Virus record (IMG/VR): IMGVR_UViG_3300037722_000203
Location: 1-28,893 of that record
DNA: 28,893 bases
Strand: one strand, 5' to 3'
Origin: a virus
Lineage: Duplodnaviria > Caudoviricetes
Part shown: in pieces, positions 3,527 to 28,893 of the stretch
Numbering within the stretch: the first letter of the stretch is position 1
Layout: each line of letters begins with the position of its first letter
Program-made: the position numbers and the translations under genes
Notes under the pieces: model-generated
Database searches by the model: none
Told to the model about the DNA's origin: nothing
The model's input: the letters and a program-made list of their open reading frames with translations, nothing else

Positions 3527-4043
3527 CAGCTACTTCGCGCGTCGCCGATGTCCAGAGTGGGGCTGGTTTCGCGTCGGCGCCGCGATCGTATGCGTGCCGA
3601 AGAAGTGCGGCTCGACGAGCTTTCGATTCGCGCTGTTGCCAAAGCGCCGGATGTCGGACTTCTTGAGCCGCTATCGGCCGATGACGAATGAAGAGGCGAA
3701 AAGCTACGGGCTGCCGTGCTATCTCGCTGTTCGGGACCCCGTGTCACGGTTCGCGAGCTTCTACTCCACCGTACAGCGCGCGACGGACTTCAAGCCGCTG
3801 CGCGGACTGTCGCCTGATCGGCTGCTCGACGTGATCGAGCCGCATCTGCACGAAGACGCGCACTGGCAGCCGCAAGCCGATTACCTGATTACAACGGCGA
3901 CGCTCGTGCCGTACACGCGACTGCTCGAGCTGCTCGAACTGCCGCCAGTGTGGGCCGAGAGATCGGAGCGCAAGGCCCAGATGCCGGAGACACGAATCCT
4001 GTCGCTGTACGCCAAGGACGCAGAGCTGTGGGCGACACGGTAG
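3513..4043 (+). CDS. PAPS-dependent sulfotransferase (Sulfotransfer_2-like)
   Basis: 5'-PSB-like VPKKCGSTS, 3'-PB-like VRDPVSRFASFY and the DAHWQPQ motif. Start uncertain (3498, 3513 or 3519). Confidence 0.75.
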   Translation: MRLIDSYFARRRCPEWGWFRVGAAIVCVPKKCGSTSFRFALLPKRRMSDFLSRYRPMTNEEAKSYGLPCYLAVRDPVSRFASFYSTVQRATDFKPLRGLSPDRLLDVIEPHLHEDAHWQPQADYLITTATLVPYTRLLELLELPPVWAERSERKAQMPETRILSLYAKDAELWATR

Positions 4044-4750
4044 CCTGCTTCTTGTGGCCCGGCCGAGGCTATCAGCCGGAGCACGTCAACATCTTGCAGC
4101 GTGCCGTCGCGAGGAACATGACACGTGTCATGTTCGCGTGCGTAACTGACGGATTCGACAAGGGATTGTTCAACGAACACGTCGAAGTGATCGACACGCC
4201 CCCCGAAGCCCTGGCGCTCGCGGATCTAAAGAACCCTGAAGGCGAAAGGTTTCCGTCTTCGTACCGCAGGATATGGACGTTCTCGAAGGACGCGCGCTGT
4301 CTCGGCGATCGAGTGCTGGTGCTCGACGTCGACTGCGTGATCACTCGCAGTCTGGAGCCGCTGTTCGATTTCTCGCCGGCTGATTTCGTCGGCTGGCGAC
4401 CGAGCTCAGCATGGGGCAAGCGCGGGAGACTCGGCGGCGGGACATGGCTGCATCGAACCGGGACTCTCACCCACCTGTGGGAGCAGTTCATCCGCGATCC
4501 GAACGCGTCGATCGAGGACGCAAAGCAAGCCGGTTGGAACGGATCGGATCAGGCGCTCTTGAGCCATTGGCTCGCGGATCGAGTGCCGGTGTGGCCTGAA
4601 GGACATGGGATAATGCAGTCACAAGACTATAAGACGAAAAACAAGAGAGACGAATGGCCGCTGCCAGAAAGCGCTCGAATATGTCACTTCAATGGGCGTC
4701 GAAAACCTTGGGATTGTGAATGGTCATGGGTAAAGGAACATTGGCGATGA
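4028..4750 (+). CDS. GT-A fold (GT8-like) glycosyltransferase
   Basis: N-terminal VACFLW..GYQPEHVNIL, DxD motif VLDVDCVI, SDQ, and C-terminal ICHFNGRRKPW. Start placed at GTG 4028, overlapping the end of the previous gene. Confidence 0.75.
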   Translation: MGDTVACFLWPGRGYQPEHVNILQRAVARNMTRVMFACVTDGFDKGLFNEHVEVIDTPPEALALADLKNPEGERFPSSYRRIWTFSKDARCLGDRVLVLDVDCVITRSLEPLFDFSPADFVGWRPSSAWGKRGRLGGGTWLHRTGTLTHLWEQFIRDPNASIEDAKQAGWNGSDQALLSHWLADRVPVWPEGHGIMQSQDYKTKNKRDEWPLPESARICHFNGRRKPWDCEWSWVKEHWR

Positions 4751-5277
4751 ACGAAGAGTGGAAGACCATACGAGGATACGAAGGGTTCTACGAGGTCAGC
4801 GACCTTGGCCGCGTTCGATCATTGGACAGAACGGATTGTGGCGGTTACAAGCGCCGTGGCCGAGTGCTCAAGCCAGGAACCAAAGCGCATGGACACAAGT
4901 TCTTGATTCTCTGTGGAAGGGACGGCTCGAAACGCAATAGACACATTCACGATTTAGTGCTTACGACCTTTGTCGGAGATCGGCCAGAAGGGATGGAGGG
5001 ATGTCACGGAGACGGTGATGCAGGTAATAATCGGCTCGACAATCTGCGATGGGACACGCACGTTCGCAACGTGCGAGATACCGTTAAGCATGGCACCGTT
5101 GCACGCGGACAGGCCCACGGAATGGCAACGCTAAGCGAAGCGGACGCGCGTTCTATTTTCGATCTCGCGTCTGCCGGTGTAGATCAAAAGCAAATTGCAC
5201 TCGGCCTAAAAATAACCCCAGGCCATGTACTAAACATCTTGCGTGGTAAGCGATGGGCGCATTTGTGTCCACGCTGA
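4747..5277 (+). CDS. NUMOD4-HNH homing endonuclease (free-standing)
   Basis: EEWKTIRGYEGFYEVSDLGRVRS (NUMOD4), CHGDGDAGNNRLDNLRW (HNH) and a C-terminal HTH-like segment. ATGA overlap with the upstream stop codon. More AT-rich than neighbouring genes. Confidence 0.9.
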   Translation: MNEEWKTIRGYEGFYEVSDLGRVRSLDRTDCGGYKRRGRVLKPGTKAHGHKFLILCGRDGSKRNRHIHDLVLTTFVGDRPEGMEGCHGDGDAGNNRLDNLRWDTHVRNVRDTVKHGTVARGQAHGMATLSEADARSIFDLASAGVDQKQIALGLKITPGHVLNILRGKRWAHLCPR

Positions 5278-6044
5278 TCTGCGAGATCGTCGGCAAGTAT
5301 CGCGGCCCGATTTTGATAGTCGCTGGCGGCCCAAGTACGTTGACTGACTTGCCGCGCCTCAAGGAAATGGGCGTCGTTCCGACTGCTGTGCTATCAGCAA
5401 ATCACCATGGCTATATGCAGGACTGGTTCGCTCCTGACTTCTCCGTGTGTTGTGACCCATCTCACGGAGAAACTCAGCAGAACATGGGCACGTTTCTGCA
5501 CAGCTTCGGCAAGCCGATCATCACGCGCTGTCACTTCGGCGACTACCGGCTGCCGGAGTGGCGGCACTCGGCGAACAGCGGGCTGACGGCCGTCGCGGTT
5601 GCGGTGGCGCTGGGCGGTAATCCCGTGATCGTGACCGGCATCGACTGCTACCGCATGACGAGCGATGTCGTGTACTTCCACGATCCGAAGGCGATAAGCA
5701 ATTCGACACGGAAGCTGCCGATCAACTTCCGCAAGCAGATCACGAACATCAAGCAACTGTGCGACGGCGCGCACATCCGCCCGATGAGCGGCCCGCTGTG
5801 CGATCACTTCCCGACGTTCGATCCTGCCGAGAAGCTCCGGCCGGTGCGGACGCCGCCATTCGTCGACCGGCTCGCCGAGACGAAGCCGATCATGGTGCGT
5901 GCTGTGTACAAGAAGCACTTCAACTTCGGCGTGGGCCGCGTGCCGAAGGGATTCGTGTTCCCGGTGTCGGCGTTCGAGGCGCGCTCGCTCGAAGGAAATC
6001 ACTACGCGAAAGTTTTGTCTTATGCGCCTGAGTTGTTACGGTGA
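5253..6044 (+). CDS. Maf/MptE-like (CstII/GT42-related) putative glycosyltransferase
   Basis: ILIVAGGPS and NSGLTAVAVAVALGGNPVIVTGIDCY parallel the GxGPS and SG...A..LG...I.L.GIDFY motifs of CstII/Maf-family enzymes. Start is ATG 5253 or GTG 5265. Confidence 0.65.
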   Translation: MGAFVSTLICEIVGKYRGPILIVAGGPSTLTDLPRLKEMGVVPTAVLSANHHGYMQDWFAPDFSVCCDPSHGETQQNMGTFLHSFGKPIITRCHFGDYRLPEWRHSANSGLTAVAVAVALGGNPVIVTGIDCYRMTSDVVYFHDPKAISNSTRKLPINFRKQITNIKQLCDGAHIRPMSGPLCDHFPTFDPAEKLRPVRTPPFVDRLAETKPIMVRAVYKKHFNFGVGRVPKGFVFPVSAFEARSLEGNHYAKVLSYAPELLR

Positions 6045-17144: not shown

Positions 17145-18019
17145 TGGCCGGGTTCTTCAAGAAAGTTGGCACAGCCCTTGGCGATCTCGTCGGCGGCGGA
17201 GCGGCCGAGGAAGTCGGTTACCAGGAGGGCTTGGACAAGCGGGCGCAGTTCGATTACCGCCGCTCGCAGACCGATCTTGCGATGCAAAAGGCAGCGGCCG
17301 AGCGCGACGCTGCGATGGACCGGGAAGCCGTGCGGCAGTGGGGGCAGCCTGGCGTCGACATAGAGTCCGCGCCGATCGGCAACCTGATCGCGGGCGGCAT
17401 GGGATCTGATTACGCGGGCGCTGGGCTCGGACGGCAGCGCGGACAAGAGATGCGGTTCCGCGAAACGATCGGCGATCCTGCCGCGGAAGAGGCTTCGCGC
17501 ATCGCGGCGGCGCAAGCTGTCTCTCCTGCGCAGCTCTCTGACCCGGATTCGCTCGGCGGCAAGATGAGCGCAAGCGATCTGGTCGTCATCAACACGCCTG
17601 ATGGTCCGCGGTACGTAGGCGCGGCGGATGCGATCAACCAGGCGCCGGGCGCGCGGCCGTCTGCGGCTGGCGGAACAGCGAACCAGAAAAACTATGACCA
17701 TCTCGTGTCGCTTGGCCTCGAGCCGAATCTGGCGCTCGCGATCGTCTATCGGCAGATCACGGACCCGAACAAGGCGAAGCTGCAAATGGTCGACGCGATG
17801 GTACGCAGCGGGTTCTACGGTGCGGAAGACGCGCAGCAGACGGCGGAGCAGATCATCAACGGCATTTACGGGCCGACCGGGCCTGGGCCGATCGTGCCGC
17901 CGATCATGCCGCAAGCGGGCGAGCAACCAGACGTCGGCGAAGGCGCGACGGCCGTCAATCCTGCAACCGGCGAGCGTCTCATGCTTCGCGCAGGGCAGTG
18001 GGTCCCGGTGGAGTTCTGA
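17141..18019 (+). CDS. Internal virion/ejection protein
   Basis: A/G-rich, coupled to both neighbours, ends in the small module EGATAVNPATGERLMLRAGQWV. Confidence 0.55.
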   Translation: MMAGFFKKVGTALGDLVGGGAAEEVGYQEGLDKRAQFDYRRSQTDLAMQKAAAERDAAMDREAVRQWGQPGVDIESAPIGNLIAGGMGSDYAGAGLGRQRGQEMRFRETIGDPAAEEASRIAAAQAVSPAQLSDPDSLGGKMSASDLVVINTPDGPRYVGAADAINQAPGARPSAAGGTANQKNYDHLVSLGLEPNLALAIVYRQITDPNKAKLQMVDAMVRSGFYGAEDAQQTAEQIINGIYGPTGPGPIVPPIMPQAGEQPDVGEGATAVNPATGERLMLRAGQWVPVEF

Positions 18020-21000
18020 TGCCGGCTCCGCCTCTACCTCCGGGCTTTCAGCTTGAGCGGTCCATGCCGTCGCTTCCGCCTGGGTTCGAGCTGGAAGGTG
18101 CTCCGGCGCTTGAGCCTGCCGAACCTCCGATGCAAGCCGGACTCGGCGACTCGATGATGAACCTCGCGCGCGGCGTCGGTGAGCGTGTGAGCTCGCTCGC
18201 TGGCGGCTTGATGACGACGGCAGGCGCCGTGCCGCAGGCGCTCGAGCGTCGCTTCCCTCTTGGCGGTATCCGCTTCGATGACGGCCTTGAGTTCGTCGGC
18301 GGCGAAGAATACGCGAGCCGGCAAGCGGCGACGGAGACACCCGATCTGTCCGAGATCTTCGTTGGCACGGGCGCTGCCGCGCAAGAACGCGATCTCGGCT
18401 ACGAGCCGATGACCACATGGGAGAACGTGAAGGACGTCGAGGGCGTTCTCCCGACGCTGATGGAGGGTACCAAGTTCGCGCTCGAGCAAGGCGTCGTCTC
18501 GCTGCCCGACATGGCGGCCGCGCTAGCGAATCTGCCCGCGTACATGACTGCTCGAGCGGGCGAGATTGCGAAGGCGCGCGCGAACCTGCGCGGTGAGGAG
18601 GAGATCAACGAAGAGGATCTCGCCATTGCTGGCGGGACCGCACTTCTATCCTCGCTGCTCGAACGCTACGGCGCCGAGAAGGTGCTCGGTAGCCTGAAGG
18701 GTTTGGACGCTACCGTGCTGCGCAGAATATTCACGGCCGCGACCGCAGAGGCCGGTACTGAAGCTGCGCAGGAAGGACTCGAATACGGCGCCGAGCGAGT
18801 CGGACAGGCGCCTATGGCGCTGGGCGAGCTCGGCGACCGCATGGCAGCCGGCGCAGTTGGCGGAGCTGGTGCCGGTGCAGCGATCCGCGGCGGCGCAGAG
18901 ACCGCTGTCGGTGCCGCGCGGCTGGTCAGCCCACCGCAAGAGCTGCCGGCCGATCTCGGCTCGCTCATGCAGCAGCCGGAGATTCCAGCGCTACCGGCGC
19001 CGACGATCACGGTCGACCCGCAAGGGCAGGCCGGAACGCAGGTTCAGCGCGAAGCCGCCGCCGCGGAGTCTGCCGAGCTCGGGATGACACCCGGCACGAT
19101 CCGCGCCGCGATGGAACAAGCGCGTCGAGAAGCAGAGATGCGTCCGCCGCCTGTCGAGCCGTTGGCGCTGCCGCCGCCTGACACGAAGCCGGAAATAGTT
19201 CAGCCGGCGCCCCTCCAAAATCTAGCCGAGTCTGTGGAAACCGTGATCCCAGAGGCACCCGAGCCCGAAATGGCCTCGCCTATTGCGCCAAGCGACGCGA
19301 TCGAGGGGGGGGGCGCTACCCAAGTACGGCCCGGAACTGAGTCTCGGCCAGCTACCGATGACAAAACAGCAGCGCTACGCACACTCGCGCAACAGGCCGG
19401 ATGGGCTGAGGTTGGCGGCAAGATGATCCGCAGTGGTGCGCAGACCGAAGGCGGGTTGGTAGGCGAGGGCCAAGGAGATGTCATCGGCCGCACGCCGTGG
19501 ATTCCGAAGGCCGAGTGGTGGCCTGGTCGCCCTGGTGGATTCAACGAATCTCAGACGGCCGCCATCATCGAAAAGGGTATCAACGGGAATCTGCTGGGGA
19601 AGAAGCAGCGCGAGTACTTCGATTTCCTTTCCGAGCTCGCCGACGAGATGGTCGCATCCAGCGCCTTCAATCCGACTAGCGATGAGCTTGCCGCGGAGCA
19701 GTTCGAGTCTGGACCGGACGATGGTTTTGAGGCAGCATTAGTAGCTCGCGCTACCGAGCTTGACGAAAATGCCGCCGAACGAGCCGCCCAACAATTCGAG
19801 GACGACGATGCCGGATTCCTCCGTGCCATCAAGGCCATCGTCGACCAACCGCGTGAGGCGCCTACAGAGAGTCGCCAAGGCGGTGCTCGCTCGGAAAAAG
19901 CAGACCTCTTCGGCCAAGACACCAGCCAAGCCCAAGAAATAGCCGACGAACAGCGGCGCGTCGACGAGCGCCTTGCGCCCGACCGCGACGTACCGCTCGA
20001 GACCGGGCGCCCCGACGATCTATTCAGCGAGTCGCGCAAGCAGCGTGACATCGAAGACGCTCCCGCCTCCGAGTCGCCTGTGCCCGAGAAATTCTCCGAC
20101 TTCGCCCGCCAGCGGTGGGGTCCGAATTGGGCGATTGCTCGGCCCACGGAACGCAATCTTGAGCGCTACGGTCGCCTCATCACGAACTCGGAATACAAGA
20201 AAGCCGAAGCTGAGTGGAAGGGTGCTCTCGAAGAGCAGAAAGCCGCTGAGCCACAAACGTCCGAAGGCATTGAAGTCCAAGAGCTATCGCCCGAGCGCCT
20301 GACGCCGGAGCAGCGCAAGGCGTTCGGAGGACTGAAGCAGCGACGCGACGAAGGGCGCGCCGAGTCTCAGCTTGATACCGAGCTTACGCGCCAGTCCGCA
20401 GAGGAAGGGCAGCAGGACGCGGAGACTCGCGGGCTTCGCGACGCCGTGCGCTCAGTGCTCGGAGAGGCCGATACCGTCGAGTTCGTTGCCGATGTCAACG
20501 GCGTACCTGCCGAGATCCGCAAGCGCATGAAGCGCAGCCCGGGAACGACGTGGAAAGGATCATTTGACCCGAAGACCGGGCGCGTGTTTATCGCCTCGTC
20601 GGCCGCGACCGATCCTGCCGATGCAGCCTGGACGGCGGCACATGAGATCGCGGGGCACAAGGGCTTACGCGGTTCGATCGGCGCAAATGACATCGACGCG
20701 CTCAACAACGCGTTTCGAATTGCGCGCCAGAATCCCACTGTCGACCGTCTTGCGACGGAGATGAAGCGCCAGCGTACGAAGCTCGGCGAGATGACTTCGG
20801 TCGAGGAAGCCTTGGCCGAGCTTGCCGCCGCGACGCGTACCGGCGACTACGCTCACATCAAGGACCGCTACGGCATCGATGTCCCGCAGGCTCAACGTGA
20901 CACGCTGCGCGGCGCGATCGAGCGATTCATTCAGCGCATCAAGGCTCTCTTCGGCAAGCGTGGCGCGAAGTTCTCGGACGAGCAGGTGCGCGACTTGCTA

Positions 21001-23640
21001 GAAGGCGCGTGGCGGTACGTGAGCGAGGGCGAATCATCTCGAAGCGAAGGCGACGCCACGCTGAGCGAGGTTGAGCCAGAATCAACCCTACTGCGGAAAC
21101 GTATCCGCAAGCTCGACAAGAAGATCGAGCACGAGCTTGTCGTGAGCGGCGGCGAGAGAACCCAAAAGATTCGCAGCATGATCGCGGAGTCTGCGCGGAT
21201 TGGCGAACGCGCCGACGCGGTGGATTTCGGAGACGCGCAACTCAGCGAAGCCGTTGCCGAGCGCCGCACGACTCCGCCATCGCAGAAGGGCGACAAGGGC
21301 TACGCCAAAGCAGCGCAGCGCGCTATCGACATCTGGAACGAGAAAATCGGCTGGCGCTACGGTGTGCTCGGCAAACTGCCTGCGAAGAAAACGTACCTGA
21401 AGGAGCGGTATCTCGCGCTCGGCAAAGTCGGCGAGTCGCAGGAGATCGGGCACGGCGTGTTCAAGGCGCTGTCGAAGGCCGACGAATCCGATCAGCAGGC
21501 CGTTTACGCGTACATGACGACGCGCGACGCGAAGCCGTCGAGCATCAAGGATGACGCGATCCGCGCCCAGGCGGTGAAGGTGAAGGGCCTGATCGACCGC
21601 GTTGGCAAGCGGCTCGTCGAGGCAGGGCTGCTCTCGAAGGAAGCCTACGAAGCGCACGCTGGCGAGTACTTGCCGCGCGTGTACTTGAAGCATCTGCTCG
21701 GCGAGAAGAATTTCAGCGCGATCGGCAACGGCAAGCGGCTCTCTGATCTTGGCTACACGAAGCAGCGCATGGACATCCCCGAGGATGTGCGCAAGGTCAT
21801 TCTCGGCGAGATAACGGACCCTGCATTCCTCGCGTCGTTCGGGCTCACGCGCACGCTGCGCGATCTTGCGATCGTGGACTTCTTGCAGACCGTGGCCGGC
21901 AATCGGAAGTGGACTCCTGCGGGTGCGGTGGTCGAGTGGAACGGCCGCAGCGTGTCGCCGTTCTGGCTGCAAGCCGAAGCTCAGCGGTTGCGCAAGCAGG
22001 CGCAGTACCAGACTGCGGACGTTGCAGAGAAAGCCCGCAAGCTCGCCGAGCGTATGGACAAGGAAGCGCACGACGCAGAGGAAGCGCTCGGAGACGTTGG
22101 CGGCGACTTTCAACAGGTTCCGAATTCGCCGCGCTACGGCGCTCTGCGTGGCCTGTGGGTGCGCAAGGAAATCTTCGACGATCTGGTGGGTGCGCAGAAC
22201 TTCATCCCGCGCGAGGCCGGTTGGGCGGAATCGCTGCTCGGCCAGGGCGGGACGCTGACCAAGCTCACGCAGTGGTGGAAGATGAGCAAGGTCGCGCTCA
22301 ATCCGCCGTCGCAGATTAGAAACTTCGCGTCGAACATGGCGCTGCTACACCTGTCCGGTGTGCCGGCGCACCGCGTGTACAGCGGCGAGATTGTCGGTAA
22401 GGCGATCAAGAGCATCATCAAGAAGGACCGCTACTACCAGATCGCGAAGAAGTACGGGCTGTTCTCCGTGACGTTCTCGAACCAAGAGCTGCGGCGCATC
22501 GAAGACTCGTGGATTGCGTTGCAGAAAAAGCAGGGCACCGGCGTTGCTAGACTGAAGGCGATGGGCGCGGAATTCGCCAACCTTGCTGGCGATACCTATG
22601 CGCTCATGGAGGCGGTGGGCAAGATCGCAAAGCTCCGTGACGCGATGGGCCGCGAGGGCAAGTCGGAAGCCGACGCGATGATCGAAGCTCACGAGGCGCT
22701 GTTCGACTACTCGCTCGTGCCGCGCTCGATTCAGTACCTGCGCAACGCACCGATAGGCTCGGCGTTCATCACGTTCACCTACAAGGTGCTGCCGCAGCTC
22801 GCCAAGACTGCCGTCAAGCATCCGATGCGGTTCGCGCCCTACGTCGCAGTCCCGTACATCTTGCAGGAGATCGTCAAGTCGTCATTCGACGTCGACGACG
22901 ACGACGTTGAGAAGCTGCGCAAAGCCTTCCCGAATTGGATAGAAGAACGCGGGCACATGCTGCTGATGCCGTTCAAGGACGAGGACGGCCGCTGGCAGGT
23001 TGTGAACCTGGGCTACATCCTGCCGTGGGGCGCGTTCACGAACGCGTACAAAACCGCGAAAGCCGGGAAGCCTCTCGAGGCGCTTCGGGACATTGGACTT
23101 CTGAGCGGCCCGATACCAGACGTGATCGCGGCCATCAAGACGAACATCGACCCGTTCACGAAGCGCGAGATCGTGAACCCTGCGGATCCTCCTGCCGAGC
23201 AGTTGCAACAGCTTCTAACCTACGTGTGGAATCTCGCGATGCCGTCGTTCATGGGTATTGGCCAGGATCAACGCCAAGGCGGAGCGTTGAGCCGCATGAA
23301 AGACGCGCTCTCCGGCAAGGTCAATCCGCGCACCGGAGACCCTCGCGACACGCCGACGCAAGCTGCGATGCGCTTCTTCGGCGTTAACGTCTATCCGGTA
23401 GAGCCCGAGAAGACGCGGGCCGCCAACCTGCGCGGCATGAAGTTCGAGCTCGACGAGATCCGCAGCCGAATGCGCGAGCAACTGCGCGACCGCAACTTGA
23501 CGGACGATGATCGGGCGAACATCCGGCGCGTGTACTCCGCTCTTGGAAAGGCGCAGGCAGAGCGTATTCAGCGGTACCGCGAGGATTCGGCGATCCATCC
23601 AAATATGCGAACTGCTCAAGACGAGATCGAAGAGCCGTGA
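18019..23640 (+). CDS. Large internal virion (ejection) protein, multidomain/polyvalent type
   Basis: About 1870 aa. ATG 18019 overlaps the upstream TGA. LPPGFxLE occurs twice at the N-terminus; central HEIAGH...EEALAE zincin-like motif; helical C-terminal region (LNPPSQIRN, LFDYS, N.DPFT.REI). Confidence 0.75.
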   Translation: MPAPPLPPGFQLERSMPSLPPGFELEGAPALEPAEPPMQAGLGDSMMNLARGVGERVSSLAGGLMTTAGAVPQALERRFPLGGIRFDDGLEFVGGEEYASRQAATETPDLSEIFVGTGAAAQERDLGYEPMTTWENVKDVEGVLPTLMEGTKFALEQGVVSLPDMAAALANLPAYMTARAGEIAKARANLRGEEEINEEDLAIAGGTALLSSLLERYGAEKVLGSLKGLDATVLRRIFTAATAEAGTEAAQEGLEYGAERVGQAPMALGELGDRMAAGAVGGAGAGAAIRGGAETAVGAARLVSPPQELPADLGSLMQQPEIPALPAPTITVDPQGQAGTQVQREAAAAESAELGMTPGTIRAAMEQARREAEMRPPPVEPLALPPPDTKPEIVQPAPLQNLAESVETVIPEAPEPEMASPIAPSDAIEGGGATQVRPGTESRPATDDKTAALRTLAQQAGWAEVGGKMIRSGAQTEGGLVGEGQGDVIGRTPWIPKAEWWPGRPGGFNESQTAAIIEKGINGNLLGKKQREYFDFLSELADEMVASSAFNPTSDELAAEQFESGPDDGFEAALVARATELDENAAERAAQQFEDDDAGFLRAIKAIVDQPREAPTESRQGGARSEKADLFGQDTSQAQEIADEQRRVDERLAPDRDVPLETGRPDDLFSESRKQRDIEDAPASESPVPEKFSDFARQRWGPNWAIARPTERNLERYGRLITNSEYKKAEAEWKGALEEQKAAEPQTSEGIEVQELSPERLTPEQRKAFGGLKQRRDEGRAESQLDTELTRQSAEEGQQDAETRGLRDAVRSVLGEADTVEFVADVNGVPAEIRKRMKRSPGTTWKGSFDPKTGRVFIASSAATDPADAAWTAAHEIAGHKGLRGSIGANDIDALNNAFRIARQNPTVDRLATEMKRQRTKLGEMTSVEEALAELAAATRTGDYAHIKDRYGIDVPQAQRDTLRGAIERFIQRIKALFGKRGAKFSDEQVRDLLEGAWRYVSEGESSRSEGDATLSEVEPESTLLRKRIRKLDKKIEHELVVSGGERTQKIRSMIAESARIGERADAVDFGDAQLSEAVAERRTTPPSQKGDKGYAKAAQRAIDIWNEKIGWRYGVLGKLPAKKTYLKERYLALGKVGESQEIGHGVFKALSKADESDQQAVYAYMTTRDAKPSSIKDDAIRAQAVKVKGLIDRVGKRLVEAGLLSKEAYEAHAGEYLPRVYLKHLLGEKNFSAIGNGKRLSDLGYTKQRMDIPEDVRKVILGEITDPAFLASFGLTRTLRDLAIVDFLQTVAGNRKWTPAGAVVEWNGRSVSPFWLQAEAQRLRKQAQYQTADVAEKARKLAERMDKEAHDAEEALGDVGGDFQQVPNSPRYGALRGLWVRKEIFDDLVGAQNFIPREAGWAESLLGQGGTLTKLTQWWKMSKVALNPPSQIRNFASNMALLHLSGVPAHRVYSGEIVGKAIKSIIKKDRYYQIAKKYGLFSVTFSNQELRRIEDSWIALQKKQGTGVARLKAMGAEFANLAGDTYALMEAVGKIAKLRDAMGREGKSEADAMIEAHEALFDYSLVPRSIQYLRNAPIGSAFITFTYKVLPQLAKTAVKHPMRFAPYVAVPYILQEIVKSSFDVDDDDVEKLRKAFPNWIEERGHMLLMPFKDEDGRWQVVNLGYILPWGAFTNAYKTAKAGKPLEALRDIGLLSGPIPDVIAAIKTNIDPFTKREIVNPADPPAEQLQQLLTYVWNLAMPSFMGIGQDQRQGGALSRMKDALSGKVNPRTGDPRDTPTQAAMRFFGVNVYPVEPEKTRAANLRGMKFELDEIRSRMREQLRDRNLTDDDRANIRRVYSALGKAQAERIQRYREDSAIHPNMRTAQDEIEEP

Positions 23641-26818: not shown

Positions 26819-27178
26819 CTATCTGTTCGCGATCTCTAGCAGCACGTCCGCGTGGCAGGGAATTCGATTGCCCTGCGCGTCGGTTAGCGGGCACCAACAC
26901 GCGAGGTTGCGCCCGCGCAGCGCACGAAACGCGAAAGGATCGACTCGATACCGTTGCTCCATGAAGTGCCGGAAAGCAGCGACGGCTGTAGCGGCGTCCT
27001 TCACCGGCCAACCGGTCCATAGATCAACGTTCTTTTCCCAGTCGGCGTAGTGCTCAAGCTTGTCGGGCTCGCTCGATACGATGAACTGATTGCCCCAGCG
27101 CGATGGGCGACCGACGTACACCGTTTTAGGTGGCATCGTCCATCCCTTCGTGCGCTTGCGTTGAATTCGTTTTGGCAT
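26819..27178 (-). CDS. DUF4326-like protein
   Basis: MPKRIQRKRTKGW.MP...VYVGRPSRWGN.F and LRGRNLACWC...CHADVLLEIAN. Confidence 0.8.
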   Translation of the reverse strand: MPKRIQRKRTKGWTMPPKTVYVGRPSRWGNQFIVSSEPDKLEHYADWEKNVDLWTGWPVKDAATAVAAFRHFMEQRYRVDPFAFRALRGRNLACWCPLTDAQGNRIPCHADVLLEIANR

Positions 27179-27191
27179 AGTTTTGAAGGCC

Positions 27192-28115
27192 CTATGGCTC
27201 GAACTGTGCGAGCTGATCGAACGGGACACGGAAGCCGGACGCGTGCTTGTGTCCACCGCCGCCGTACTGCTTCGCGATTTCGCCAACGTCCGCTCCGTTG
27301 TCGCGGCTCCGCAGGCTGAATACGCGGCCGTCTGGCGTGTCCCAATAGCAGCCGGCGAACGGATGCGCATCGCCGCAGAGCAGGTGCCCGGCATCGCTCG
27401 TCAGCGTATAGGGCAGGTTCGCCATCGGGACAACGATCGACCCGGAGTAGTCGGCCTGATACCGGAAGCGCATCGGCCGCGTGACGACTTTCGTCAACTC
27501 GGTGATGTCCTTATGGTGCTTGCGCTCGATCGCAGCTCCCTCGCATATCAAGCGGTCCGCATCGGCCTCGACGCTGGCGACAAGCGCGCTCCACGTCGTG
27601 AAGTCGTATGGGTAGCTGAACAGTGCGGCTTGAATTTCGCGCGTGCCGTCGAGCTTGAAGCGCCATAAGTCGCGGTCCTCGACATGGTTCACGAGCTTCG
27701 GCCGCGGTATGCCGGGGTTGAAATAATCCCACGTCAGCCCGGCCCCGCTGCGCTCCATGTCGAACAGCGCGTGCAATGCAGCGGGCGCGCCGCACTCCTC
27801 CTGCCAAGACGACATACCGTCCGGGTCATACGGTCCGGTCGGCGGCGGCGGTAAGCTCTTCAGATCCTCGGCGGCCGTCTTGTGGTGGTCGAGGATCAGG
27901 AGCGTGCGCGCCTTCGCCGCAAGCTCGTGAATGACCGGCGCCTTGTAGCTGAAGTCGGTCATGATCACGTCGCGCCCCGTAACGTCCGGTGGCGGGTCCT
28001 GGTAGACGCCAGCATGGAACTCGACACCATCGCCGAGTGCCTTGCGCACGATCCACGCCGACATGAAGCCGTCCGCGCAGTTTGAATGGTAAATACAAAG
28101 CACTTTGCTGCTCAT
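27192..28115 (-). CDS. DHH/DHHA1 family phosphoesterase (NrnB-like)
   Basis: IYHSNCADG, TDFS, LDHHKT, RSGAGLTW, EDRDLW, FSLRS, GGGGHKHASGF. GGAG RBS before ATG 28115, which overlaps the LAGLIDADG stop. Confidence 0.85.
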   Translation of the reverse strand: MSSKVLCIYHSNCADGFMSAWIVRKALGDGVEFHAGVYQDPPPDVTGRDVIMTDFSYKAPVIHELAAKARTLLILDHHKTAAEDLKSLPPPPTGPYDPDGMSSWQEECGAPAALHALFDMERSGAGLTWDYFNPGIPRPKLVNHVEDRDLWRFKLDGTREIQAALFSYPYDFTTWSALVASVEADADRLICEGAAIERKHHKDITELTKVVTRPMRFRYQADYSGSIVVPMANLPYTLTSDAGHLLCGDAHPFAGCYWDTPDGRVFSLRSRDNGADVGEIAKQYGGGGHKHASGFRVPFDQLAQFEP

Positions 28116-28591
28116 GCCGCGACTCCGCGTTGATTCAACTTTTGTGACTTGGCGCGGCATGTTTCCCGGAAAAGCCACTCAGCGTCAGTTAGTCCTTTTG
28201 ATCCAGGCCGCCGCATTCCGGCCTGAAACTCAATCAGGTTTTCGGCTTGCGACCGCTTGATCCGAAGATAGGGCAGCAATTCAGTCAGCAGCTTGGATGC
28301 CTCGTTGCTCCACACTGCCCAGGTCCAAGCCGGGCGGTGTATCGCTACGTTGACCCGCTTCTCGCAAATGCCGCCGACGCCTGTAACGCTCTGCGCCCAC
28401 TGAAGCACATCAAAGTCAGTCATGGAGATCGAGACGCTGGCGCGATACGCGAATCCGCGCTTACACGATTTCGCTGCCGCGCCTGTTCGTGTGCGACTGA
28501 CCGCTACGCTACCCTCGCCATCAACTAACCCAGCGAGGTATGCCGCGTCCGCAACTGACAAGTTACCGTGATAGATGCAAAGAGGTTTCAA
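28112..28591 (-). CDS. Single-motif LAGLIDADG homing endonuclease, fused to the old DHH gene start
   Basis: AYLAGLVDGEGSV, SVSISMTD..VL, LLPYLRIKRSQA. GGAG at 28599-28602 points to TTG 28591 (MKPLCIYHGN...); ATG 28603 is an alternative. Confidence 0.85.
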   Translation of the reverse strand: MKPLCIYHGNLSVADAAYLAGLVDGEGSVAVSRTRTGAAAKSCKRGFAYRASVSISMTDFDVLQWAQSVTGVGGICEKRVNVAIHRPAWTWAVWSNEASKLLTELLPYLRIKRSQAENLIEFQAGMRRPGSKGLTDAEWLFRETCRAKSQKLNQRGVAA

Positions 28592-28597
28592 TTTAAT

Positions 28598-28853
28598 CTC
28601 CATTCGTTGAAGGAATCGGTCCGCTACTCGTGAAACTCTTTCAGCTCTTCGTGGACGCGCATCATCTCCACCACATCGCCGCTGATCGCGGCCTTGTCGG
28701 CTCGCTGTAGGGCGTCCTCCATCATCGCGATAGCGAATGCTCCAGTCGGCCCGATCTGGCGGTATATGCCGATCAGGCGGCGCACGCGGGCTTGTTGCTC
28801 TGGGAGGGACTCACCTAACGTCTTGATCACTTCGTTGCTCCATTCGGTTGAAG
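28598..28853 (-). repeat. Repeated leader CTTCAAC(C)GAATGGAG upstream of two consecutive genes
   Basis: Copies at 28838-28853 and 28598-28612, each ending in the GGAG RBS. Confidence 0.6.
28624..28830 (-). CDS. Small hypothetical phage protein
   Basis: GGAG RBS before GTG; 68 aa, helical (LGESLPEQQARVRRLI..Y..IG..GAFA). Confidence 0.65.
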   Translation of the reverse strand: MIKTLGESLPEQQARVRRLIGIYRQIGPTGAFAIAMMEDALQRADKAAISGDVVEMMRVHEELKEFHE

Positions 28854-28893
28854 ACTCTATCGCTTACCCAGAGACCGAAGCTCTTCAGCATTC

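Follow-up and report, generated by a model that had tools for sequence, protein, structure and literature searches.

According to the usual view, a homing endonuclease that lies within a gene needs an intron or an intein, and one that lies beside a gene needs long flanking homology. The locus described here raises the question of how an endonuclease ORF can open with the first codons of another gene while that gene still stands complete behind it. The window, i.e. the whole stretch of DNA analysed (28,893 nt), is a 28.9-kb linear virus record, ~63% complete; among its phage genes is one for a major head protein. At its right end small genes form a minus-strand cluster, which contains a LAGLIDADG endonuclease ORF followed by a gene for a DHH phosphoesterase. 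A sequence-only reading had proposed that the endonuclease inserted in frame after codon 10 of the DHH gene, uses the ribosome-binding site and start of that gene, and restores it with a synonymous, cleavage-immune 5′ end. We put a probability of roughly 0.8 on the reading that the element consists of a LAGLIDADG gene and a spare DHH 5′ end, inserted after codon 10, and that it would spread by splicing-free homing with the spare start as protection. What is established is how the locus is built, that empty alleles exist, that the family as a whole is tied to DHH genes and that linked alleles have an altered motif.

Anatomy of the endonuclease/DHH locus

The features of the locus (27192-28603) are as follows.

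28598..28601, minus strand: GGAG Shine-Dalgarno sequence of the original DHH gene, 6 nt before the TTG (from the sequence)
28562..28591, minus strand: captured first ten DHH codons, MKPLCIYHGN, in frame with the endonuclease (from L027 and eight empty contigs)
28112..28561, minus strand: single-motif LAGLIDADG body, 149 codons and stop (from Pfam and profile matches)
28123..28126, minus strand: GGAG for the replacement start, within the codons of the conserved C-terminal NxRG of the endonuclease
28080..28115, minus strand: replacement DHH start, MSSKVLCIYHSN, 12 codons; its ATG overlaps the endonuclease TGA, with Gly changed to Ser at the likely target
27192..28079, minus strand: DHH/DHHA1 phosphoesterase body, with CADG, DF, LDHH, EDRDLW and GGGGH motifs (PHROG 4771)

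The whole endonuclease ORF, captured codons included, occupies 28591-28112. It begins with TTG AAA CCT CTT TGC ATC TAT CAC GGT AAC (28591-28562) and reads on in frame into LSVADAAYLAGLVDGEG, ending at the TGA at 28114-28112. That the ORF opens with the start codons of the DHH gene was borne out by the sequence, by the empty allele L027 and by eight empty contigs. The GGAG at 28598..28601, once that of the DHH gene, is predicted to serve the endonuclease now. An in-frame ATG at 28603 was rejected as the endonuclease start; no Shine-Dalgarno sequence precedes it, and empty alleles start at the K-P-L register. As had been read from the letters, the new DHH start has a GGAG of its own (28126-28123), separated by a 7-nt spacer from an ATG (28115-28113) that overlaps the endonuclease TGA and after which the DHH start reads MSSKVLCIYHSNCADG. 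Between the captured and the replacement copies, each of the C-I-Y-H codons does differ at its third base; CTT and AAC are shared. Relative to the empty allele the insertion is 482 nt long (28561-28080), with AACT at both borders (28564-28561 and 28082-28079).

Parts of the window were present in four public sediment runs, and no RNA run was listed as containing it. As a check of the assembly, contigs from public runs overlay the junctions with no differences. Run X1, which may be the source sample of the record, covers 27687-28133 and 28143-28870, and run X3, from another study, covers 28062-28334, i.e. the stop/start junction only. No contig skipping the insert was found in the four DNA runs, whose low-depth contig data are no proof of absence. 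A second copy of the element was not found in the window's own contig, and the 68-aa upstream ORF had no homologue among the compared loci. Elsewhere in the window, glycosyltransferase-like and sialyltransferase-like ORFs lie amid structural genes at 3950-6044 (PHROG 1962, 4603). An 1880-aa ORF at 17998-23640 has no Pfam match and probably encodes a virion or ejection protein; it is followed by a tail-fibre-like ORF with a Peptidase_S74 chaperone.

The window endonuclease matched Pfam LAGLIDADG_1 with an E-value of 2e-4 and 22.6 bits, just below the cut-off of 23.1 bits. A profile of its family matched I-MsoI (E 2.4e-6) and I-CreI, both of which are intron-encoded in chloroplast rDNA. The protein carries a YLAGLVDGEG motif, and E26 and K112 are invariant across 14 close homologues; it has the helix with an acidic residue and the conserved downstream Lys that define the single-motif LAGLIDADG class. 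Like I-CreI and I-MsoI, it is a single-motif protein of ~150 aa that keeps the acidic motif residue and the lysine of LPYL..K. Unlike them, with which it shares only distant similarity, its family has replaced the conserved Gln (Q47 in I-CreI, Q49 in I-MsoI). An L-N-x-R-G C-terminus is near-universal in the family. Three close pairs gave dN/dS of 0.05-0.055, indicating purifying selection on the endonuclease. GC3 was 0.62 in the endonuclease body versus 0.81 in the DHH gene. PHROGs and GenBank annotate this family as HNH, while its sequence is LAGLIDADG; CcrRogue gp61 (L075) and PHROG 5046 are both called HNH endonuclease, though single-motif LAGLIDADG. The downstream gene encodes a 307-aa DHH/DHHA1 phosphoesterase matching the PHROG 4771 DHH phosphoesterase at E 1e-101. 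Its Pfam DHH and DHHA1 matches are weak; motif I, the DHH motif and the GGGH of DHHA1 are present.

The endonuclease family and its empty target alleles

Searching with an alignment of close homologues gave 22 endonuclease loci, some of them duplicates (L055/56, L065/73/74, L058/59). In 19 of the 22 loci no more than ~20 nt separate the endonuclease stop from the start of a DHH gene; among the remaining three, two contigs end too soon and one is a weak unrelated match. The sequence-only reading had named homologues in unrelated loci with the same KPLCIYHGN start as evidence that would speak against it. That evidence was not found: a DHH gene lies behind the endonuclease at every locus with enough downstream DNA, and the captured starts of homologues vary (MSM-, MSNIL-, MNPNI-, MGWKPDI-, MKPFLV-). 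No locus of the family was found in species-representative genomes.

The DHH start is captured, as in the window, at six loci (L053, L054, L057, L058, L059, L071). The window endonuclease is not free-standing in the sense of being intergenic with its own start, its start being that of the target gene; 13 of the 22 relatives are, and two loci are 5′-truncated remnants. The earlier reading overlooked that most family members are free-standing endonucleases upstream of an altered DHH allele. The free-standing form also occurs in six GenBank records of Caulobacter phages, the CcrRogue group. In CcrRogue the endonuclease lies between gp60 and the DHH gene, while in phiCbK, BL57 and CcrBL10 the gp60-equivalent and DHH genes are adjacent.

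Remnants of the endonuclease 3′ end with a spare DHH start were seen at L066:180-330, L067:1019-1160 and L085:1783-1835. Upstream of them lies unrelated DNA, with a different join in each of the three; two of the joins are in frame with another ORF. Because these three loci have other left joins and an intact DHH gene, the DHH gene does not depend on the captured codons.

Other endonucleases are found around DHH genes. At L061:2145-2571 a second LAGLIDADG paralogue lies ~430 nt upstream of the DHH-linked one, before a different ORF. At L004:1962-2495 an unrelated HNH endonuclease (PHROG 374, E 7e-38) lies directly upstream of a DHH gene that is the sister of the window DHH on the tree (support 98). 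It takes the place that the LAGLIDADG gene has in the window; its locus has an altered motif, IFHSPCGDG, and an ATGA overlap, and its C-terminus, RRGIAV*, resembles the LAGLIDADG tail. Members of a sister LAGLIDADG clade (P0018, P0051, P0114, P0115, P0120 and, partly, P0113) end in the C-terminal tail of the DHH protein, TPDGRVFSLRS...GGGGH, joined at different points. This clade is probably a mirror-image element at the 3′ end of DHH genes, judging from the protein sequences; no DNA context for these C-terminal fusions was found in viral contigs or GenBank phages.

Empty alleles were collected as 49 rows of DHH loci from viral contigs, leaving out the truncated L045-L047. CIYHGNCADG is unbroken in 44 of the 49 rows. 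The exact empty allele that had been predicted, MKPLCIYHGNCADG, is unbroken in eight distinct contigs, and none of the 49 rows begins with MSSKVL, the start that had been set against the prediction. For 30 nt in a row the empty allele L027 has the letters of the captured copy, after which it continues with CADG, so the resemblance of the captured codons to a DHH start is not due to chance. Insertion in frame after codon 10, with use of the host ribosome-binding site and start, is supported by the sequence and by these alleles.

In the filled/empty pairs L058/L101, L054/L104 and L057/L100, the upstream sequences match through the ribosome-binding site and first codons and part exactly after CAYGGNAAYT. 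The DHH bodies of these filled alleles are 96-97% identical to their nearest empty alleles. The endonucleases of L057 and L058 are nearly identical (97.5% over 589 nt). In both, the captured copy agrees with the flank at the Cys wobble base and with the endonuclease at AAC, which places the left crossover inside the captured codons. Over the 90 nt that precede the site, L057, L058, L066 and L067 show 0-1 differences, and L085 has a shorter remnant in common. In all five, 15 nt from the His codon are identical and shortly afterwards 12-16 of 90 nt differ, indicating a right crossover within ~20 nt of the site. The enzymes of L053 and L054 are 98% identical in upstream sequences that share only 30 nt; other pairs share 41-120 nt.

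A DHH tree was built from 204 distinct bodies after removal of duplicates, of rows without a readable motif and of those <200 aa. The 14 filled alleles require 14 changes on it. The empty alleles closest to the window DHH are only 57-60% identical, and no close empty relative of the window phage was found. Filled and empty cognate alleles, a patchy distribution on the host tree and short co-conversion characterise a homing element, and an intragenic insertion with a diverged duplicate that restores the ORF characterises a gene-end-replacing cassette; both sets of features are present here. Taken together with the purifying selection on the enzyme, the filled/empty pattern is what repeated recent homing leaves, which is not itself a demonstration of cleavage. 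At L089:1825-1870 an altered IFHAN stands behind an empty-type upstream flank with no endonuclease. The element may have been lost precisely, through recombination between its two starts, or conversion may have taken place without the endonuclease.

Altered motif I and repeated capture of the start

YHGNC was kept in none of the 21 endonuclease-linked rows. Since motif I varies freely in distant DHH lineages, the count was restricted to alleles whose nearest empty neighbours are mostly YHGNC; the motif was kept in 0 of 11 filled versus 80 of 100 empty alleles (Fisher p 1.8e-7, related rows counted as independent). Three of the 14 filled alleles sit among motif-variable neighbours and are uninformative. 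A paired phylogenetic test of eight pairs on well-supported branches gave four with the trend, none against and four uninformative (median p 0.125, not significant). YHSN or YHAN also occurs in some empty alleles that have no endonuclease. Among the cultured phages, CcrRogue has YHGSC, including a change of AAC to TCG, versus YHGNC in CcrBL10; of the 54 nt that open their DHH genes 10 differ, and of the 246 nt that follow, 9.

The earlier claim that the 5′ end is cleavage-immune through synonymous changes was not supported. In the window, Gly GGT is replaced by Ser TCA, a non-synonymous change, and the third-base pattern was not repeated in other start-capturing loci. It was only moderately unusual among empty alleles, occurring in 197 of 4186 pairs (4.7%), and one of 92 empty alleles, a set from which L004 was left out, differs from the captured copy at all four third bases. 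We therefore rejected synonymous recoding as the basis of immunity, the consistent signal being an amino-acid change in Y-H-G-N. Protection is likely due to the replacement of Y, G or N by another residue, in the window through GGT to TCA. The four third-base differences may increase this protection, or make deletion between the captured and the spare copy harder. Of 17 centres tried on 66 distinct empty sites, AYTG, at the junction, scored highest with 5-bp arms (3.3 of 5, the next 1.94). It was not the best for 9-bp arms (3.92, 3.86, 3.80), and the pseudo-palindrome is weak.

A profile search gave 115 proteins, of which 11 have a DHH-like start, including MKPFLVIYHAN, MIVIYHAK and MGWKPDICIFHGG; several of the start-capturing ones are known without DNA context. 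The captured starts are joined in different registers, and some still precede an apparent old endonuclease start. A tree of 36 rows, including the 11 start-capturing ones, required seven changes, and a single clade was rejected (p-AU 2.9e-5, quick tree). On a smaller tree of 26 rows without the added start-capturing rows, one origin was not rejected (p-AU 0.263). Start capture likely arose several times, although gains would be indistinguishable from losses on these trees. We read capture as secondary and repeated because free-standing forms surround the capturing ones. For T4 intron homing, the available part of PMC2988022 describes repair that is one-sided and leaves microhomology junctions, and such repair would give joins like those of the captured starts.

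The captured codons could also have arisen by deletion. A free-standing endonuclease with a whole DHH allele would have landed right behind a resident DHH gene or in tandem with it, and a later deletion would have fused the resident's first codons to the endonuclease. Homing would then be of the ordinary intronless kind, with the captured codons as a by-product with no role in spread. The free-standing form of 13 of the 22 loci is compatible with this route, and the three remnants, in which the left part of the cassette is joined to unrelated DNA at three points, indicate that random left joins or deletions do occur. However, in 10 of the 11 start-capturing proteins the captured stretch stops no more than a few codons from one and the same H-G-N, a preference not expected of random deletions, and the same enzyme is found in flanks sharing only 30-120 nt. 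We consider the deletion route unlikely, but the best of the alternatives.

A further alternative treats the insert as a self-splicing intron, or as a stretch that ribosomes bypass; the endonuclease would then be fused to exon 1, and translation of the DHH protein would begin at the original start. In fungal mitochondria it is common for intron ORFs to be fused to the exon before them, according to the part of PMC10448965 available to us, and the G before CTT in the spare start allows a paper splice of the form MKP/LCIYHSN. Against this, no Rfam family matched 27000-28893 at E up to 5, and 450 of the 482 nt are conserved ORF, so that a ribozyme core would not fit. Downstream, the DHH gene has a ribosome-binding site, an ATG and a complete motif I of its own, and the same spare start is kept at free-standing and truncated loci that have no captured exon. 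With no ribozyme match, an insert that is almost all ORF and a complete downstream gene with its own start, the locus does not have the form of a group I or II intron, and there is no need for splicing, as the earlier reading had held. No intein was matched in Pfam either; the stop at 28114-28112 and the DHH gene in another frame are not those of an intein. We regard splicing or bypass as very improbable.

Hardly more credible is a domesticated endonuclease, kept for harming co-infecting competitors or for regulating the DHH gene, with little homing today: the strong purifying selection would suit it, and interference competition is reported for another phage endonuclease (PMC11620839, in part), but patchy presence among 96%-identical DHH alleles, sharp boundaries and frequent decay fit a spreading and decaying element, and interference and homing are not mutually exclusive.

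Proposed homing route and relation to known systems

Under the preferred reading of homing with a protective spare start, a homodimeric enzyme would cut empty alleles at the YHGNCADG codons, probably across the AYTG of Asn-Cys. Repair would copy the endonuclease and the spare start, with the right crossover within ~20 nt of the site. The ancestral form would have been free-standing, upstream of an immune allele. In a recipient lacking upstream homology, the left end would join at the cut by microhomology (AAYT), and in-frame joins would survive because the endonuclease gains the recipient's ribosome-binding site and start. Later, the captured codons and ribosome-binding site would act as a short left homology arm. 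Residue changes in YHGN would shield the spare start, and translational coupling through ATGA would keep the DHH gene expressed.

Intronless homing, including that of the T4 seg and mob genes, and gene-splitting insertions are reviewed in PMC2988022, of which part was available. Like those genes as described there, the window element has no intron or intein, an endonuclease beside its target gene, a presumably immune linked allele and co-conversion. The seg and mob enzymes, in the same account, are GIY-YIG or HNH proteins encoded between genes and cutting hundreds to thousands of bp away. Unlike them, the window enzyme is a LAGLIDADG protein at its presumed cut site, inside the gene and translated from the target's start. 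Closer is T4 mobA in gene 60 (bioRxiv 10.1101/2022.08.31.505936, in the accessible portion), likewise a splicing-free coding insertion with a new N-terminus, a diverged homologous region replacing the target sequence and repeated independent insertion at one place. As that portion describes it, mobA is an HNH gene that splits a topoisomerase into two subunits, and its immunity needs ribosomal bypass. In the window, unlike mobA, the DHH protein is not split, and the displaced start now serves the endonuclease.

The elements of fungal mitochondria in Allomyces atp6, Ophiostoma rps3 and Phlebia cox2 (PMC4019555, available in part) also bring a duplicate of the displaced gene end that restores the gene, with in-frame fusions, and N-terminal duplicates of atp9 are noted in the accessible part of PMC7487136. 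As far as these sources go, such elements are organellar and mostly affect 3′ ends, while the window element lies in a phage gene with bacterial ribosome-binding-site coupling and belongs to one family with free-standing and fused forms. An N-terminal rps3 site was reportedly described by Sethuraman et al. in 2009. SXT in prfC and IMEVchUSA3 in dusA (bioRxiv 10.1101/2021.06.18.448947, in the part seen) resemble the window element in inserting at a 5′ end and supplying a new N-terminus. They differ, by the same partial account, in being integrase-driven, excisable, tens of kb long and equipped with their own promoter, and no element gene uses the displaced start.

The earlier reading had presented the locus as splicing-free intragenic homing. 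The architecture is well supported by the comparison of genomes, while the principle is already known from T4 mobA and fungal mitochondria. Splicing-free intragenic cassettes with a replacement piece being known, the window element would be a variant of gene-end-replacing homing cassettes. Full-text searches of the open literature, to which subscription papers mostly do not belong, turned up no account of a LAGLIDADG endonuclease tied to phage DHH genes or of a phage endonuclease fused to the start codons of its target. The available parts of PMC10448857, PMC8260586 and PMC5626475 contained no precedent.

We give about an even chance to a wider proposal. Capture would be recurrent, and the 25-30 nt of captured ribosome-binding site and codons would be a built-in left arm between mosaic phages with unrelated upstream genes, making the element a ~0.5-kb home-and-rescue drive. 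The DHH gene would then be contested at both ends, at its start by the LAGLIDADG family and at its C-terminal tail by the sister clade, and also by the unrelated HNH endonuclease.

Free-standing and start-capturing forms at one target, with close empty alleles, make the transition between them readable from genomes. The free-standing form is available in cultured phages (the CcrRogue group versus CcrBL10, BL57 and phiCbK). Annotation pipelines will not recognise the short DHH-like start of these endonucleases as foreign. Some phage DHH enzymes degrade immune nucleotides, according to the part of a preprint available to us (10.64898/2026.07.21.739742). If the DHH proteins of this family do so too, the element would ride on an anti-defence gene. 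Capture of a start would offer selfish nucleases a route to cross mosaic phages and to rewrite the conserved metal-binding motif of a host gene.
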